Sequence record: NC_054905.1
Strand: one strand, 5' to 3'
Length of the DNA stretch: 64,000 bases
From: Enterobacteria phage Kha5h
Part shown: positions 23,343 through 63,154 of the stretch, piece after piece
Numbering within the stretch: position 1 is the first letter of the stretch
Layout: every line of letters starts with the position of its first letter
The notes under the pieces: model-generated
Told to the model about the DNA's origin: nothing
The model's database searches: none
The model's input: only the letters and a program-made list of their open reading frames with translations
Made by a program: the position numbers and the translations under genes

Positions 23343-23816
23343 TTATTTGAATGATTTGACGTACTGAATAGAACCTTTACTATTCACGAAAGCGATTTTA
23401 CCATTTTTATTATACATGGTAGCAGTACGCTGATAGCCATAAGTTTGTTTACCAGATTGATAACCAACTAATGCGAAATTATCTTCACCCATTTTATTCT
23501 GTTTAGCGCGAATACGTTCATGACCGTGTGCCATAAGAACCTTAGCATCACCAGTTGAAATTGATCTACGAGTTTTTTCATCTTCAACTGTATTAACAAA
23601 GTCGTCAAATGAATCAAATTTAGCATGGGATTTATTATACAGTTTTCCATCTACTGCATAATTATATCCCTGTACATCCATCTCAACTTCTGTACCATCA
23701 TCCAATACAGCAGTGATTTTTTGACCTTTTTTAAATTTCAAAAGATCAGTAAAAGATTCAGCAATAATTTGAGAATTAATAGCTGCTTCAGTGATAAATT
23801 CTTGATATGTTTTCAT
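23343..23816 (-). CDS. candidate packaged internal protein with capsid-targeting-like N-terminus
   Basis: N-terminus MKTYQEFITE-AAINSQIIAE matches the T4 internal-protein CTS (MKTYQEF, L/I-x-x-E protease sites). Confidence 0.6.
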   Translation of the reverse strand: MKTYQEFITEAAINSQIIAESFTDLLKFKKGQKITAVLDDGTEVEMDVQGYNYAVDGKLYNKSHAKFDSFDDFVNTVEDEKTRRSISTGDAKVLMAHGHERIRAKQNKMGEDNFALVGYQSGKQTYGYQRTATMYNKNGKIAFVNSKGSIQYVKSFK

Positions 23817-23825
23817 ATGTTTCCT

Positions 23826-24242
23826 TTAAATGTAAATATTTTTGCCGTAATACTTGTACCAGTGTGGCTTCATTAAAATTTTTTCATCGAGTCGTTGTTG
23901 ACTCAATTTAATAGCTGATTTGCATGGATTATAATCATTTTTCCATTCTGCTGGAATATCGCTGATGTCAGGAACTTCAGTATCTTTTATACTAAACCCA
24001 CGTTTTAAGCATTCCGTTATAATGTCTGATTGACGCTTTCGCAAAAATTCTAACTTATCGTAAAAGAACGTAACATGACCAGAGCCTAAAATAAACTCGG
24101 AAGATATTTTAAAATCTTTAACCCGCTTACCATTTGCCACATGTTTACGAACTATACCAAAAACACGCGGCAATTCACGATACTCAGCCATAAGATGTTG
24201 GTCGGTCAGTTCAGAAACAAGTGTTAAATTGATACGAGTCAT
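23826..24242 (-). CDS. denV: pyrimidine-dimer DNA glycosylase (endonuclease V)
   Basis: 138 aa from ATG 24240-24242 behind GGAGGA SD; [12 protein letters not shown]... matches T4 EndoV as recalled. Confidence 0.9.
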
Positions 24243-24269
24243 AATTTCCTCCAAGTAGTTGATGAATGT

Positions 24270-24299
24270 ATAGTATCAAAGTCCTTGGAGGAAGTAAAC
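24270..24299 (-). promoter_or_regulatory. T4-type early promoter upstream of denV
   Basis: GTTTAC-N18-TGATACTAT. Confidence 0.55.
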
Positions 24300-24300
24300 A

Positions 24301-25541
<1,241 letters not shown>

Positions 25542-27984: not shown

Positions 27985-28027
27985 AGTATTTCCTTAGGTT
28001 GATTAAGATTTAAAATCCGTGAGAGTA

Positions 28028-28204
28028 TTATACTCCGGATAGTTTGTAAACTATTTCAACATCGCCTTTTGCTGCTTTATAACCTTCAGCCCAAGATATA
28101 ACCGAGTTTTTATCTGAAGATTCAAATTCTGGCATTGGGCTTTCGCCAATGTTCACACAATATGTTTCTTCATTTTCGTCGAACCAAATAATTAAAGTAG
28201 TCAT
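28028..28204 (-). CDS. hypothetical small protein (58 aa)
   Basis: hand-translated (MTTLIIWFDENEETYCV...), GGAGAAATAA SD; not in ORF track. Confidence 0.4.
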   Translation of the reverse strand: MTTLIIWFDENEETYCVNIGESPMPEFESSDKNSVISWAEGYKAAKGDVEIVYKLSGV

Positions 28205-28272
28205 TTATTTCTCCGTTTCTATATTTGTTTTGATAAGTCTATAATAACACCGTCCTTGGTGTTTGTACACAA

Positions 28273-28536
28273 TTATTTCATATTATTGAAATATTCTTCT
28301 GCGATTTCGTCGTTATCATGGTAAACTTTAGAAGACAGTTTAACATAACCTTCAGCAGTGAACATGTTAATCACAACCTTTACAGTATACCACTGACCGT
28401 CTTCATTACCCATTACTGCATAAGTTTCAAACATCGGATGATCAGGACCGATAACTTTAATATCATTCACCGTACGACCAAAATCTTCTGAAACGCATTT
28501 CATAAAGAAGTTGAACAGTTCGCCGTAATTATCCAT
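28273..28536 (-). CDS. hypothetical protein (87 aa)
   Basis: start moved to ATG 28534-28536 (MDNYGELF...) behind GGAGAA SD; ORF-track N-terminus is promoter read-through. Confidence 0.5.
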   Translation of the reverse strand: MDNYGELFNFFMKCVSEDFGRTVNDIKVIGPDHPMFETYAVMGNEDGQWYTVKVVINMFTAEGYVKLSSKVYHDNDEIAEEYFNNMK

Positions 28537-28579
28537 TTCGTTCTCCAAGTTGTTTTCTGTATCAGTAGTTGATAGTTGT

Positions 28580-28609
28580 ATAGTACCATGGAAGGACAAG
28601 GATGTAAAC
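28580..28609 (-). promoter_or_regulatory. T4-type early promoter cassette
   Basis: GTTTAC-N18-TGGTACTAT-ACAACTATCAACTAC with A/T-rich UP element. Confidence 0.6.
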
Positions 28610-28743
28610 CGTTTTGTGAAAAAATTTTTTAAAAAGTTTTAGGGAATTCTAGGGCAGGGAGGGGCAATTAAAAGATAGGATAATATATTATAAAGGGTAG
28701 AAACTAAATGATGCCTAGAGAGGCCTGGAAAGGCCTAGATACC

Positions 28744-28771
28744 AAAAAGCCCCAACCTTTCGGCTAGGGCT
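28744..28771 (-). terminator. intrinsic terminator
   Basis: hairpin AGCCCTAGCCGAAAGGTTGGGGCT followed by TTTTT. Confidence 0.65.
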
Positions 28772-28778
28772 AAGAATG

Positions 28779-29252
28779 TTATTTGATTTGTTTAGCAGAC
28801 CAAATGCGGTCTTTAATAATTTTTTGAATGTCTTCAACATACTCAAGAGAGTGAGCATGTGGGTTATCTTTGAAACTATAAGCACGAGCCAGTTTTTGGC
28901 CTTCAGTTTTGATTACTAAAAGCTCTTTAAGGATAGCTTCATATCTGGAGATAATTCCTTTAACAATATTTTTCTCTTGTGCGACTTTAGGATCTGCTTT
29001 AGGAGCAGGTTTACCCGAAGCCTTTGCAAAAGCAGCGCCAGTAGCAACTAAACTTTTCCAAGCCATACTAACTGCATTCCCTGTAAATCCTTCGGCTTTC
29101 ATATCACGAGCAAATTGGAATCGTGATTCATCGGAAGCATCTTTATAGGAATATTTACCCGCGGCAATGGCTGCTTTTGCGACAGCTTGAATTTCGGTGC
29201 TAGATGCTTCATTTAACACCGCTTCATTTAAAAATTGAGCATATGATTTCAT
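28779..29252 (-). CDS. candidate packaged internal protein with capsid-targeting-like N-terminus
   Basis: N-terminus MKSYAQFLNE-AVLNE; flanked by terminators on both sides. Confidence 0.5.
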   Translation of the reverse strand: MKSYAQFLNEAVLNEASSTEIQAVAKAAIAAGKYSYKDASDESRFQFARDMKAEGFTGNAVSMAWKSLVATGAAFAKASGKPAPKADPKVAQEKNIVKGIISRYEAILKELLVIKTEGQKLARAYSFKDNPHAHSLEYVEDIQKIIKDRIWSAKQIK

Positions 29253-29298
29253 CTTATTTCCTGTTTTAATTCGTGGTTTTAATATACTTATTTATACT

Positions 29299-29326
29299 AA
29301 AAAGCCCCAACCTTTCGGTCGGGGCT
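29299..29326 (-). terminator. intrinsic terminator closing the tRNA / small-RNA transcription unit
   Basis: hairpin AGCCCCGACCGAAAGGTTGGGGCT followed by TTTTT. Confidence 0.65.
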
Positions 29327-29329
29327 AAG

Positions 29330-29637
29330 CCTTGCGGCAACCTTGTCGGGGTTCCACCTGCTAAGGCAAGTGTTTGTACGAAACGCCGGGATTCGAACCC
29401 GGTTATTAAGCAGTTGACGCTACTCAATATTTTTAAAAGGCCATATCTCGACCATATCCGAACGTTCCGTCAAAAACGCTACTCGGCTTACGGCAAAGAT
29501 ATTTCCTCGAATCGATAATTCGGTGCGCCGTTTTTGCTGTGATATAAGGGGGCATTAACAAAACATAAAGATTTGTTAATGCCAGTCCTTAAACAGGGAA
29601 CATCAGTCCGACGACTTACCGGTAGCGACCCGGTTTC
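29330..29637 (-). ncRNA. candidate small stable RNA locus (tRNA-like element plus long hairpin)
   Basis: non-coding; contains T-arm-like CCGGGTTCGAATCCCGG with a pairing acceptor-like stem, and a perfect 12-bp hairpin GGCATTAACAAA/TTTGTTAATGCC; ends at a terminator. Confidence 0.3.
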
Positions 29638-29988
29638 TTAATATTCTTTTAAAGCATCAATTTGTTCACGGCGTTTACGCCATAAATCAATTGCTTCATA
29701 CGCAGATTCAGCATTTCGAATTAGCCGGCATTTATGTAAAGACTTATGATTTTGATATTGTGTAGATAACGGAATTTTATCTAAAAGGTCTTTACGTTCA
29801 AAGTATTCGTAACCATCTAAGCCAAATGAACGATTTTTAAGAAATTGCCAATGACCAAATTCGTTTTCGACATAAACATAATCTGCATGCTGATAAAGTA
29901 AATTAATTACACGTTCAGAAATAACAGTATCATTATGATTAAAATAGAATGTTAAATCATGAACTACTAAGTAAACATTGCCTTTCAT
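29638..29988 (-). CDS. hypothetical protein (116 aa)
   Basis: start moved to ATG 29986-29988 (MKGNVYLVV...) behind GAGGAA SD; the ORF-track TTG start lies inside tRNA-Arg. Confidence 0.5.
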   Translation of the reverse strand: MKGNVYLVVHDLTFYFNHNDTVISERVINLLYQHADYVYVENEFGHWQFLKNRSFGLDGYEYFERKDLLDKIPLSTQYQNHKSLHKCRLIRNAESAYEAIDLWRKRREQIDALKEY

Positions 29989-30006
29989 ATTTTCCTCACT
30001 TATAAT

Positions 30007-30083
<77 letters not shown>

Positions 30084-30087
30084 TATT

Positions 30088-30162
30088 TGGCGGACATGCA
30101 TGGATTCGAACCATGGACCAATTGATTAACAGTCAACTGCTCTACCACTGAGCTACACATCC
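30088..30162 (-). tRNA. tRNA-Asn (anticodon GUU)
   Basis: hand-folded: D-arm GCTC-AGTGGTA-GAGC, anticodon loop CTGTTAA, T-loop TTCGAAT, encoded CCA. Confidence 0.75.
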
Positions 30163-30166
30163 AAAT

Positions 30167-30253
30167 TGGTGGGGAGTGATGGAGTCGAACCACCCGAGTC
30201 GCAATGACAATGGATTTACAGTCCACACCGCTACCTCTACGGGATAACTCCCC
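30167..30253 (-). tRNA. tRNA-Tyr (anticodon GUA), type II
   Basis: hand-folded: perfect acceptor GGGGAGT/ACTCCCC, anticodon loop CTGTAAA, long variable arm, encoded CCA. Confidence 0.8.
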
Positions 30254-30265
30254 TAATTCATAATT

Positions 30266-30340
30266 TGGTGGCCCTGGGTGGAATTGAACCACCATCTGGC
30301 GATTATGAGTCGCTTGCTTGAACCTTCCAGCTACAGGGCC
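30266..30340 (-). tRNA. tRNA-Ile (anticodon CAU, presumably lysidine-modified) or tRNA-Met
   Basis: hand-folded: anticodon stem-loop GCGA-CTCATAA-TCGC as in Ile2-type tRNAs; acceptor GGCCCTG/CAGGGCC. Confidence 0.75.
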
Positions 30341-30341
30341 T

Positions 30342-30417
30342 TGGTGCTGATTGACGGAATCGAACCGCCGACCTTCTCATTACAAGTGAGTTGCTCTACC
30401 TACTGAGCTAAATCAGC
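30342..30417 (-). tRNA. tRNA-Thr (anticodon UGU)
   Basis: hand-folded: anticodon loop CTTGTAA, T-loop TTCGATT, encoded CCA. Confidence 0.8.
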
Positions 30418-30422
30418 AAAAC

Positions 30423-30512
30423 TGGCGGAGGCGATAGGATTTGAACCTATGAGTCGCCGGAGCGACTGCCGGTTTTCAAGACCGGTGCATTAAACCACTC
30501 TGCCACGCCTCC
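30423..30512 (-). tRNA. tRNA-Ser (anticodon UGA), type II
   Basis: hand-folded: anticodon loop CTTGAAA, long variable arm, T-loop TTCAAAT, encoded CCA. Confidence 0.8.
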
Positions 30513-30514
30513 AG

Positions 30515-30588
30515 TCTCCATACAAGGATTTGAACCTTGGACCTCCTGATCCCAAATCAGGCGCTCTACCAAACTGAGCTACACGGAG
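30515..30588 (-). tRNA. tRNA-Pro (anticodon UGG)
   Basis: hand-folded: anticodon loop TTTGGGA, T-loop TTCAAAT; CCA not encoded. Confidence 0.75.
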
Positions 30589-30597
30589 TAATTAAAT

Positions 30598-30671
<74 letters not shown>

Positions 30672-30676
30672 AAATT

Positions 30677-30763
30677 TGGTGCGAGAAGTGGGACTCGAAC
30701 CCACAAGGAAATCATTCCGCAGCATTTTAAGTGCTGTGCCTTTACCAATTTGACCATTCTCGC
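30677..30763 (-). tRNA. tRNA-Leu (anticodon UAA), type II
   Basis: hand-folded: anticodon loop CTTAAAA, long variable arm, T-loop TTCGAGT, encoded CCA. Confidence 0.8.
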
Positions 30764-30764
30764 G

Positions 30765-30837
30765 CTGGGAATAAAGGACTCGAACCTTTGCATCTAGCAG
30801 TCAAAGTGCTATGCCTTACCAACTTGGCTAATTCCCA
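30765..30837 (-). tRNA. tRNA-Gln (anticodon UUG)
   Basis: hand-folded: acceptor TGGGAAT/ATTCCCA, anticodon loop CTTTGAC, T-loop TTCGAGT; CCA not fully encoded. Confidence 0.75.
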
Positions 30838-30923
30838 ATTATTAACAAAGGCTCTCAAACAAGAACCCTTGATGATAGAGGGTATTAATCAGTGCGGTAT
30901 GAGTTAATAATAACAAATAATTC

Positions 30924-31439
30924 TTAAAGCAAATTAAACATTTTAACAGTCGGCAAAACAATTTCTTTTTCTATATAAGAGTATTTAACACTCTCAACTA
31001 CACGCAGAAAATCATAATCATAATATTCAGAAGCACTGCCTAAAATATTAATAAGTCCTTCAAACACTTTATTACCATTCACAAAGAATAAGTCAAATAC
31101 ACGTTCTTCATCTTCTTCAGATTTATTACCAAGGTCAACTTCTATATCAAAGACCTTTTTAATGAATTCTGGATAAAGCTGGTCTGAGAACAGTCCTTCA
31201 ACCAAGTATTCATAAATAAAAAGCGATTGCTCGCTGAACAAGCCATTACCACAATAACGTTCAACTTTTGTGCTAGAATGTCTGCTTTTAAACTTCTTTA
31301 AAAGATATTGGAATTGTAAGATTTCATGCTCTTCTACACCAAACAGTGTTTTAGTTTTATAGTTGTCACCATCATTTTCCCAGGTAGTGACATCAATTAC
31401 GTAACCCTGCGGAATTGTAGTACCTAAACAAATATTCAT
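30924..31439 (-). CDS. hypothetical protein (171 aa)
   Basis: ORF track; ATG 31437-31439. Confidence 0.5.
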   Translation of the reverse strand: MNICLGTTIPQGYVIDVTTWENDGDNYKTKTLFGVEEHEILQFQYLLKKFKSRHSSTKVERYCGNGLFSEQSLFIYEYLVEGLFSDQLYPEFIKKVFDIEVDLGNKSEEDEERVFDLFFVNGNKVFEGLINILGSASEYYDYDFLRVVESVKYSYIEKEIVLPTVKMFNLL

Positions 31440-31729
31440 TTACTCACCATATTAATGTAAGTATATTCAATACATTCAAGACCCAAAGGATTCTTGAAAA
31501 TATCATATTCAAGAGGACCTTTTTCTGTTTCAATAAAGAAATCAAAATTTACTGTATTAAATTTACGGTCTTCCTTCAATAATTTAACTTGAGAAGATGA
31601 ACGGTCAACATAAACCTTTTCAACTTCAAAACATGTTAAAACGCCATAATCATCAATCAAGGCTTTAGCCGCGTCTTGATCATATTTATATCCATTTTCA
31701 ATGGACGATACTTTAGCATAAAGAATCAT
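31436..31729 (-). CDS. hypothetical protein (97 aa)
   Basis: ORF track. Confidence 0.5.
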   Translation of the reverse strand: MILYAKVSSIENGYKYDQDAAKALIDDYGVLTCFEVEKVYVDRSSSQVKLLKEDRKFNTVNFDFFIETEKGPLEYDIFKNPLGLECIEYTYINMVSK

Positions 31730-32379: not shown

Positions 32380-32667
32380 TTACAAAAGATTTTTAGCAAT
32401 AATCTTGAGATGTGCCGCAGAAATGTGTTTAGCTTTAAACAACGCAGTTTCTTCAGCAGGAGAGATAACGATTGTAGCACCATCCTTTTTAGCAGACCAC
32501 CCATCACCTAGGTAAACAGTACCTTTGATTTCTTCGCCATCAACCAAACTAATCATTGGTTTACCTTCTCGTCCTTTATTTGCTTTAATAACTTCAGAAG
32601 TAAGAGTAGCTTCAGTAATAGTAGAAACCGGGGTAGTTGTAGAAGTAAATTCTTTGAAAGTTTTCAT
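32380..32667 (-). CDS. internal-protein-I-like packaged protein with capsid-targeting-like N-terminus
   Basis: 95 aa; N-terminus MKTFKEF...TITE-ATLTSE; position just upstream of 57B matches the T4 ipI locus; own early promoter. Confidence 0.55.
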   Translation of the reverse strand: MKTFKEFTSTTTPVSTITEATLTSEVIKANKGREGKPMISLVDGEEIKGTVYLGDGWSAKKDGATIVISPAEETALFKAKHISAAHLKIIAKNLL

Positions 32668-61251: not shown

Positions 61252-61676
61252 TGCTTCTGATCCCTGAAACTCATGAATTAGTTCTCGAGAATGTCGAAGC
61301 ACTTATTCCTGAAGCACAGGGTCGCTTTGACGAATTGTCTTCTGCTTTAAATAAAGACGATATAAATACAATTATCGAGAATATGCTTGATGATGAAACT
61401 GATTTAGCAATTGCATTAGCTTCTATTAATGAAGATATGCCGCTAAATGAATTCATCGTTAAACATGTTTCAGCTCGTGGTGAAATTACGCGTACTAAAG
61501 ACCGCAAGACGCGTGAACGTAATGCATTTCAAACCACCGGGCTGTCTAAAGCAAAACGTAGACAAATTGCTCGCAAAGCTACCAAAACGAAGATTGCCAA
61601 TCCAGCAGGTCAATCTCGTGCTCAGCGTAAGCGTAAAAAAGCTCTTAAACGCCGTAAAGCATTAGGATTAAGCTAA
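61251..61676 (+). CDS. 68: prohead core protein gp68
   Basis: 141 aa; basic C-terminus; synteny. Confidence 0.85.
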
Positions 61677-62314
61677 TGAATGAACCCCAATTACTAATTG
61701 AAACTTGGGGTCAACCTGGCGAAATTATTGATGGTGTGCCAATGCTTGAATCCCACGATGGAAAAGACTTAGGTTTAAAACCTGGTTTATACATCGAAGG
61801 AATATTCATGCAAGCGGAAGTCGTCAATAGAAATAAACGTCTTTATCCAAAACGCATATTAGAAAAAGCGGTAAAAGACTATATCAATGAGCAAGTTTTA
61901 ACTAAACAAGCTCTCGGAGAATTAAATCATCCTCCACGCGCTAATGTTGACCCGATGCAAGCCGCTATCATTATAGAAGATATGTGGTGGAAAGGAAATG
62001 ACGTATACGGACGAGCTCGTGTTATTGAAGGTGACCATGGTCCTGGAGATAAATTAGCAGCTAATATTCGTGCCGGATGGATTCCAGGAGTTTCTTCTCG
62101 TGGATTAGGTTCATTGACTGACACAAATAAAGGTTATCGTATCGTAAACGAAGGATTCAAATTAACTGTAGGTGTTGATGCAGTATGGGGTCCAAGTGCT
62201 CCAGATGCATGGGTAACTCCTAAGGAAATTACCGAATCACAGACGGCGGAAGCCGATACAAGTGCCGATGACGCCTATATGGCTCTCGCAGAGGCCATGA
62301 AAAAAGCGTTATAA
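61676..62314 (+). CDS. 21: prohead core protease gp21
   Basis: 212 aa; synteny 67-68-21-22-23. Confidence 0.9.
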   Translation: MNEPQLLIETWGQPGEIIDGVPMLESHDGKDLGLKPGLYIEGIFMQAEVVNRNKRLYPKRILEKAVKDYINEQVLTKQALGELNHPPRANVDPMQAAIIIEDMWWKGNDVYGRARVIEGDHGPGDKLAANIRAGWIPGVSSRGLGSLTDTNKGYRIVNEGFKLTVGVDAVWGPSAPDAWVTPKEITESQTAEADTSADDAYMALAEAMKKAL

Positions 62315-62344: not shown

Positions 62345-63154
62345 ATGCTTAAAGAACAACTGATTGCCGAAGCGCAGAAAATTGATGCTTCCGTTGCTCT
62401 TGATAGTATTTTCGAATCAGTTAATATTTCTCCGGAAGCAAAAGAAACTTTCGGCACTGTATTCGAAGCTACCGTCAAGCAGCACGCCGTTAAATTAGCT
62501 GAATCTCATATCGCTAAAATTGCTGAAAAAGCAGAAGAAGAAGTAGAAAAAAATAAAGAAGAAGCCGAAGAAAAAGCTGAGAAGAAAATCGCTGAGCAAG
62601 CTTCTAAATTCATTGACCATCTTGCGAAAGAATGGCTCGCTGAAAATAAATTAGCAGTTGATAAAGGCATCAAAGCCGAACTGTTTGAATCCATGCTTGG
62701 TGGATTAAAAGAGCTCTTTGTTGAACACAACGTTGTTGTTCCAGAAGAATCAGTTGATGTTGTAGCTGAAATGGAAGAAGAGCTGCAAGAACATAAAGAA
62801 GAATCAGCTCGTCTGTTCGAAGAACTCAATAAGCGTGACGCATATATCAATTATGTGCAGCGTGAAGTGGCATTGAGCGAAAGTACTAAAGATCTGACTG
62901 AGTCTCAAAAAGAAAAAGTCTCTGCTCTGGTCGAAGGTATGGATTATTCAGATGAATTCTCAAGTAAATTGAGTGCCATCGTAGAAATGGTGAAGAAGTC
63001 TAATAAAGATGAAAGCACTATTACTGAGGGTATAAATACTCCTGATACTGAAGCAGCCGGACTGAATTTCGTCACTGAAGCTGTAGAAGATAAAGCTGCA
63101 CCTGGTGCAGAAGATATTGTAAGTGTATATGCGAAAGTCGCATCTCGTTTCTAA
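62345..63154 (+). CDS. 22: prohead scaffolding core protein gp22
   Basis: 269 aa; Glu/Lys-rich helical; TATAAATA upstream. Confidence 0.9.
   Translation: MLKEQLIAEAQKIDASVALDSIFESVNISPEAKETFGTVFEATVKQHAVKLAESHIAKIAEKAEEEVEKNKEEAEEKAEKKIAEQASKFIDHLAKEWLAENKLAVDKGIKAELFESMLGGLKELFVEHNVVVPEESVDVVAEMEEELQEHKEESARLFEELNKRDAYINYVQREVALSESTKDLTESQKEKVSALVEGMDYSDEFSSKLSAIVEMVKKSNKDESTITEGINTPDTEAAGLNFVTEAVEDKAAPGAEDIVSVYAKVASRF

Follow-up and report, generated by a model that had tools for sequence, protein, structure and literature searches.

A 157-aa protein encoded between e.8 and rnaC in a T4-like phage is probably an unannotated internal head protein

We found that a gene for a 157-aa protein, located beside the tRNA and small RNA genes of a T4-like phage, probably encodes an internal protein of the T4 type; that is, a protein that carries a capsid-targeting sequence (CTS), is packaged into the head and is processed there. 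This estimate excludes any function against host defenses, which we judge separately. We analyzed the whole 64-kb stretch of DNA, referred to here as the window.

The region of the window around the gene is colinear with the denV-e-tRNA-ipI-57B segment of T4. Recognizable genes include denV, lysozyme e, nudE, e.5, e.6, e.8, rnaC and rnaD, ten tRNAs, IPI, 57B, 57A and gene 1, and the records closest to the window are Tequatrovirus phages (~98% identity). The 157-aa gene is on the same strand (minus) as the neighboring genes. It has the following parts, with a slash marking a putative cleavage site here and below:

28779-29252, minus strand: coding sequence, 157 aa, PHROG 2280, with an ATG start and the N-terminus MKSYAQFLNEAVLNEASS
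29208-29252, minus strand: codons 1-15, the putative leader or propeptide MKSYAQFLNE/AVLNE/, a CTS plus two L-x-E gp21-type cleavage sites
29257-29262, minus strand: ribosome-binding site AGGAAA, read from the sequence
29289-29296, minus strand: T4-type late promoter TATAAATA, found by an exact-match scan
29303-29326, minus strand: upstream intrinsic terminator with a 10-bp stem (7 GC pairs), a GAAA loop and a U5 tail (-20.3 kcal/mol, z -3.85)
28748-28771, minus strand: downstream intrinsic terminator (10-bp stem, GAAA loop, U5 tail; -18.3 kcal/mol)

An open reading frame beginning MKSYAQFLNE/AVLNE/ASS is indeed present at 28779-29252 on the minus strand, as a previous sequence-only reading of this DNA had reported. 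That reading had also placed the gene between two intrinsic terminators, and the hairpins that we found agree with it in their coordinates. Both had z scores of about -3.8, and none of 200 shuffled sequences was equally stable. The U-runs reach ~29298 (upstream) and ~28743 (downstream). The Shine-Dalgarno sequence AGGA is 8 nt 5' of the ATG, and TATAAATA is 36 nt 5' of the ATG and 2 nt past the U-run of the upstream terminator. The order is thus terminator, late promoter, ribosome-binding site, gene and terminator, and the gene is a discrete, self-contained promoter-gene-terminator unit. The order terminator-TATAAATA-ribosome-binding site-ATG is also found in RB33 and in Klebsiella phage phiKp_22, and PhAPEC2 has a near-consensus late promoter, AATAAATA, at the same place. 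The consensus TATAAATA, kept in RB33 and phiKp_22, points to late expression, concurrent with prohead assembly.

The N-terminus of the protein had been read as a variant of the CTS. This reading is well supported by two lines of sequence evidence: the critical residues are kept, and the leader is conserved across the family. The first 10 residues, MKSYAQFLNE, are akin to the MKTYQEFIAE of T4 IPII and IPIII and to the leaders of Ip4, Ip5, Ip7 and Ip9 of RB33. In IPIII, residues 1-10 are enough for targeting (PMC9026906, a review of L. W. Black's work), with positions 4 and 7 important for targeting and positions 8 and 10 important for processing (PMC9026906 section 2.5-2.6). Compared to the T4 CTS, the leader of the 157-aa protein has the changes T3S, Q5A, E6Q and A9N. 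It has the aromatic residue at position 4 and the Phe at position 7 (Y4 and F7). The residues that matter in T4 IPIII are kept here, both for targeting (Y4 and F7) and for processing (L8 and E10). The changes from the T4 CTS spare the positions found critical by mutagenesis, and we regard the leader, with its variants at positions 3, 5 and 6, as a putative CTS.

The prohead protease gp21 cuts after L/I-X-E (PMC9026906). The leader contains two such motifs, each followed by a small residue: L8-N9-E10/A11 and L13-N14-E15/A16. The two L-N-E/A sites previously noted after residues 10 and 15 are therefore present. A 15-nt tandem duplication (29208-29237), with two copies of TTAAATGAAGC 15 nt apart, created the second site. 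The phrog_3499 internal protein of the window has the same two-site leader design (.../SILNE/A). A Mosigvirus ortholog of the 157-aa protein has a single cleavage site. Comparison of this single site to the duplication here indicates that leader length evolves by small duplications and deletions.

We searched the six-frame translation of the 64-kb window with a loose CTS pattern, MK[STA][YFW]xx[FYL][LIVM]x[ED], and compared the result to 300 first-order Markov simulations. There were three matches, all at the starts of open reading frames: Ip4, the phrog_3499 internal head protein and the 157-aa protein. The number expected by chance was 0.017, with a maximum of one match in any simulation, so the observed number was ~180-fold above chance.

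The window contains four CTS-type genes in all. The 157-aa gene had been described as the third of these; it is actually the fourth. The other three, and two head genes, are:

23343-23816, minus strand: Ip4 (phrog_3155), CTS-type, upstream of denV
24301-24582, minus strand: phrog_3499 internal head protein, 93 aa, CTS-type, between denV and e
32380-32667: IPI, CTS-type, ortholog of T4 IPI
61676-62314, plus strand: prohead protease gp21 (Pfam Peptidase_S77, 1.5e-111)
62345-63154, plus strand: scaffold gp22 (Pfam T4_CASP, 3.8e-90)

The protease and the scaffold that a CTS-bearing head protein needs are thus both encoded in the window, as is the portal gp20. The classical ip locus on the denV side (23343-24597, minus strand) contains Ip4 and the phrog_3499 protein, and T4-type ipII and ipIII are absent from it. 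The start codon of the phrog_3499 gene (ATG at 24582) and the end of gene e (24579) overlap.

The family of the 157-aa protein is narrow, yet widespread among T4-like phages. An exhaustive HMMER search of 1.8 billion representatives found 13 clusters at 50% identity, all from T4-like phages or metagenomes. The gene is present in 510 phage records, ~470 of them Tequatrovirus. Three of the metagenome "homologues" were chimeras, in which a fragment of the 157-aa protein is joined to unrelated sequence, including a trna.3-like segment. These are probably artefacts of assembly or gene calling and are unfit as family members. The protein P0019 gave no match in the phage collection.

Some orthologs have the canonical leader MKTYNEFLNE. 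Leaders of orthologs and homologues include MKTYNEFLNE/SVLTE/A, MKSYAEFLTE/Q, MKTYNEFLMTE/A, MLEYSEFLKELFCE/A, MKFKEFLAE/A, MLKFNEFLAE/G, MINFSDFLNE/G, MKSFSSFLNE/G and MISFNEFVDGNLITE/S. The full-length homologues, even those of only 24-29% identity, all begin with M-x-x-[YF]-x-x-F-[LV] and have [LIMF]-x-E immediately N-terminal to the folded domain. In an alignment of 12-13 homologues, F7 was among the ~9 invariant columns, L8 was present in at least 90% and position 4 was always Y or F. Leader length ranges from 9 to 15 aa and varies by indels. Conservation of F7 and L8 while leader length varies is the pattern expected of a functional, removable propeptide.

This conservation bears on the possibility that the protein is a late non-virion protein, with an N-terminus that targets nothing and is merely a remnant, carried along by recombination at the leader and promoter of an ip cassette. 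The e.8-rnaC locus clearly shows recombination between conserved cassette boundaries, all 60 of the 60 sampled records label the product "hypothetical" (PHROG 2280 is listed as "unknown function"), and the virion proteomics of phage fD1, described below, lists many non-structural proteins. However, a relic would not keep F7, L8 in at least 90%, an aromatic residue at position 4 and [LIMF]-x-E at 24-29% identity in at least four genera. In addition, the nucleotide sequence of the leader has nothing in common with the other ip genes of the window beyond coding constraint. We consider a non-virion protein with a relic leader to be very improbable.

The predicted mature protein resembles the T4 internal proteins in its general properties. 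Residues 16-157 form a small, basic polypeptide of 15.5 kDa and pI 9.6, compared to pI 9.0-9.65 for T4 IPI*, IPII* and IPIII*. In two AlphaFold models (pLDDT 75 and 80), residues 8-15 are disordered (<50) and the fold begins at residue 18. The predicted fold is all-alpha: residues 18-71 form a three-helix N-domain, residues 72-87 a Pro/Lys-rich linker and residues 88-154 a long C-terminal helical hairpin. Across the family the N-domain is kept, and the C-terminal halves come in two unrelated versions, one containing ...IKDRIWSAKQIK and the other ...GDVGRHYKKL. The combination of a kept N-domain and swapped C-terminal halves hints at a modular effector.

Database searches with the 157-aa protein gave no match in Pfam, NCBIfam or PADLOC, none in a sequence profile search of the PDB, and nothing at E <= 0.001 with Foldseek against the PDB. 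A fold search of BFVD found only members of its own family, including that of Serratia phage PS2, and offered no functional clue. Comparison of the body of the protein with IPI, IPII and IPIII found no similarity by Pfam, PHROG function, PDB or fold. We also considered whether the body is homologous to Ip4 or IPIII and rejected this, as the comparison shows no similarity. Likewise, we rejected paralogy with Ip4 as the meaning of a second megablast "place" in RB32 and RB33.

There is some experimental evidence on virion location. The ortholog in Yersinia phage fD1 (HE956711 = NC_027353), g140, is 97.5% identical. By LC-MS/MS of purified virions, g140 was scored as PPAP at the strict threshold, in a permissive list that has 113 of 277 products and includes denV, lysozyme e, NudE and dNMP kinase. 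Two fD1 Ip genes annotated as "head protein", g129 (Ip4) and g146, were likewise PPAP in this permissive list (113/277). The entry for g140 in the column "similar protein expressed by T4" is "No". Detection of g140 raises the odds of a virion location only modestly. Our literature search found no usable virion proteomes of further Tequatrovirus phages.

We propose that the 157-aa protein follows the path of the T4 internal proteins. At the level of sequence, the gene is a monocistronic unit between the two terminators, and its own TATAAATA promoter would drive late transcription. Based on the conserved critical residues, the N-terminal 10 residues would dock the protein on the scaffolding core (gp22) of the prohead during its assembly. 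gp21 would then cut at L-N-E/A after Glu10, Glu15 or both, and the basic, all-helical protein of ~15.5 kDa would stay in the head with the DNA. By analogy, the mature protein would be ejected with the DNA into the next host.

What the protein might do there is suggested by the known internal proteins. Ip1, Ip2 and Ip3 each inhibit a different GmrSD type IV restriction enzyme (PMC12373910; see also PMC3012670), and the targets of Ip2 and Ip3 were assigned only in 2025 (PMC12373910). IPI*, Ip2 and Ip3 have nothing in common except the leader (PMC12373910). Since Ip1-3 are mutually unrelated, the missing homology of the 157-aa protein to them is no argument against a similar function. By analogy to Ip1-3, the mature protein may counter a host defense that acts on the incoming glucosyl-hmC DNA. 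We tentatively favor such an anti-defense role as the most likely job of the injected protein, with a confidence that falls somewhat short of even.

The main alternative to an anti-defense role is that the protein is packaged and acts inside the head, as a basic, DNA-associated filler or condensation protein that affects charge neutralization, packing geometry or ejection dynamics and has no target in the host. The basic pI and the all-helical fold with its long, coiled-coil-like hairpin are consistent with this, and the T4 internal proteins, present at ~300 copies each, were long assumed to interact with DNA (PMC9026906). Most orthologs in Tequatrovirus are 95-99% identical (349 records), less diversification than might be expected in an arms race and better suited to housekeeping. 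On the other hand, T2, T4 and T6 do without the gene, indicating that it is dispensable for head assembly, and all three T4 internal proteins proved to be specific GmrSD inhibitors (PMC12373910). Furthermore, exchange of the C-terminal half with retention of the N-domain across genera is more typical of target-specific effectors. A role confined to the head seems to us distinctly unlikely.

The gene is located between e.8 and rnaC, and the following features define the locus:

28273-28536, minus strand: e.8 homologue, the next gene downstream (blastn against T4 e.8, 97.3%)
28739-28773: right direct-repeat copy, containing the downstream terminator
29294-29328: left direct-repeat copy, containing the upstream terminator
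29377-29515, minus strand: rnaC, a small stable RNA (blastn against annotated T4 rnaC, 98.6% identity)
29522-29638, minus strand: rnaD, a small stable RNA (blastn against annotated T4 rnaD, 86.4% identity)

rnaC and rnaD are at the distal end of the tRNA cluster, and the upstream terminator closes the tRNA/rnaD/rnaC transcription unit. In T2, T4, T6 and RB33, the rnaC trailer ends with a sequence identical to this terminator. The e.8 homologue has its own early-type promoter in the region 28570-28610. An Rfam scan of 28000-31500 found only tRNAs; rnaC and rnaD are absent from Rfam. The tRNA cluster (30007-30837, minus strand) has ten genes: Arg, Asn, Tyr, Met, Thr, Ser, Pro, Gly, Leu and Gln. 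The Asn and Tyr tRNA genes are missing from T4. In T4 the cluster is interrupted by the homing endonuclease segB, which is not present here. A 116-aa open reading frame (29641-29988, minus strand; phrog_3355, unknown function) is located between tRNA-Arg and rnaD, which adjoin in T4. This open reading frame is also in T2, RB69 (ORF150c) and PhAPEC2 (PhAPEC2_135), and is absent from T4 and T6.

The two repeat copies match at 34 of 50 aligned positions and share an unbroken identical core of 20 nt, CCGAAAGGTTGGGGCTTTTT. Within the terminators, the copies differ only in the 5' arm, which has CUAG in the downstream copy (28748-28771) and CCGA in the upstream copy (29303-29326). Both stems are fully paired, with G-U wobbles against the identical 3' arm.

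T2, T4 and T6 have exactly one copy of the repeat and do not have the 157-aa gene. In T4, the 284-bp interval between e.8 and rnaC is without genes, and one terminator links the rnaC trailer straight to the sequence found 3' of the downstream terminator of the window. In T2 and T6, the 5' arm of the single copy is that of the upstream repeat and its right flank is that of the downstream repeat; the conserved right flank of the locus is TTTTTGGTATCTAGGCC. A single hybrid copy in T2, T4 and T6 fits a crossover within the 20-nt identical core.

In four genera, the gene directly follows the tRNA/rnaC cluster and precedes e.8/e.6. Examples of the gene at the equivalent position are:

RB33 (Tequatrovirus): the 157-aa gene
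PhAPEC2 (Mosigvirus): the gene, with annotated terminators on both sides
phiKp_22 (Jiaodavirus): the gene, with another hairpin sequence and the same terminator-TATAAATA arrangement
Serratia phage PS2 (Muldoonvirus): the gene

The sequence-only reading had proposed an independently acquired cassette. We agree that the gene is a discrete cassette. Independent acquisition is the weaker part of that reading, given the synteny in four genera and the single repeat copy in T2, T4 and T6. A recent, independent insertion of a mobile cassette beside the tRNA/sRNA locus could account for a self-contained unit with direct repeats of ~35 bp, and for phages (T2, T4 and T6) that are free of the gene and have one repeat copy. 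However, the same position is filled in Tequatrovirus (~470 records), PhAPEC2, phiKp_22 and PS2, and the cassette comes with no mobility gene, be it an integrase, a homing endonuclease or another kind. In addition, the repeat is the operon's own terminator, and the pattern suits an ancestral gene followed by deletion or allelic exchange. We therefore think recent acquisition unlikely. Because of the synteny in four genera, an ancestral gene with repeat-mediated loss in T2, T4 and T6 is more parsimonious. That is, the gene would have been deleted by recombination between the terminator repeats, and T2, T4 and T6 would have the empty allele. Allelic exchange by recombination among co-infecting T-even phages would look identical. 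In either case, the flanking terminator repeats would let cassettes be lost or exchanged by homologous recombination.

The 157-aa gene is not the only CTS-type cassette found at this locus. Directly downstream of it, PhAPEC2 has a second cassette, PhAPEC2_133 (187 aa, MKTYAEFLTE/AAK), with its own terminator and the same right flank; the product is labelled hypothetical. RB69 has only a cassette of the PhAPEC2_133 type, with a reading frame that a frameshift has apparently broken into two annotated ORFs, ORF149c and ORF148c. RB69 ORF149c and PhAPEC2_133 share the locus, the type of leader and the presence of their own terminators with the 157-aa protein, and both are in phrog_2280. BLASTP and hhalign align only the 10-residue leader of PhAPEC2_133 with the 157-aa protein, although PHROG groups them. 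The locus is thus empty in T2, T4 and T6, occupied by the 157-aa gene alone in the window, RB32, RB33 and fD1, by the other cassette alone in RB69, and by both in PhAPEC2. Variation in the number and identity of CTS cassettes marks the two classical ip loci (PMC12373910). The e.8-rnaC interval varies in the same way, and so, as far as its gene content indicates, it behaves as a third polymorphic ip locus, where published descriptions (PMC12373910) speak of two.

The 157-aa gene and the T4 internal protein genes have much in common. Each has an MK[TS][YF]xxF[ILV]xE leader, with an L/I-x-E gp21 site at its end, and then a small basic mature protein, and each is a non-essential, stand-alone cassette in a polymorphic region. 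They differ in that the mature part of the 157-aa protein is dissimilar and its gene is at the e.8-rnaC locus instead of the denV/e or 57B loci. The leader also differs, at positions 3, 5, 6 and 9 and in the duplicated cleavage site, and for the 157-aa protein packaging, processing and target are putative.

The likeness extends to the alternative T-even internal proteins Ip4-Ip10 (Repoila et al. 1994, cited in PMC12373910), of which Ip4, Ip5, Ip7 and Ip9 are annotated in RB33. Ip4-Ip10 and those found later are recognized by the conserved leader alone, with unrelated bodies and a presence that varies between phages, and the same holds for the 157-aa protein. Their cassette boundaries are conserved regulatory sequences that permit shuffling by recombination, as at the 157-aa gene. 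In contrast to Ip4-Ip10, which sit at the two classical ip loci, the family of the 157-aa protein was never named Ip in the sampled records and is missing from T2, T4 and T6.

A bolder proposal is that the e.8-rnaC interval is a third hyperplastic ip locus that was overlooked because T2, T4 and T6 are empty there, and that the 157-aa protein is an injected inhibitor of a defense that escapes Ip1-3. We regard this combination as somewhat doubtful. If it were true, the target could be a further GmrSD or type IV variant, or an unrelated system that acts early in infection. The protein, present in ~470 sequenced relatives, would also add to the differences in host range between the laboratory T-even phages and wild or therapeutic Tequatrovirus phages.

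Our results point to a widespread CTS protein that has not been labelled as such and a second cassette next to it. With the e.8-rnaC site, they bring the number of catalogued ip loci from two to three, and they indicate that operon terminators can act as recombination handles for gain and loss of CTS cassettes. They are also relevant to the annotation of the many therapeutic Tequatrovirus genomes in which the gene is called "hypothetical". Host immunity encounters the injected internal proteins before any other phage protein, and the 157-aa protein is a candidate for an anti-defense function that would be cheap to test.
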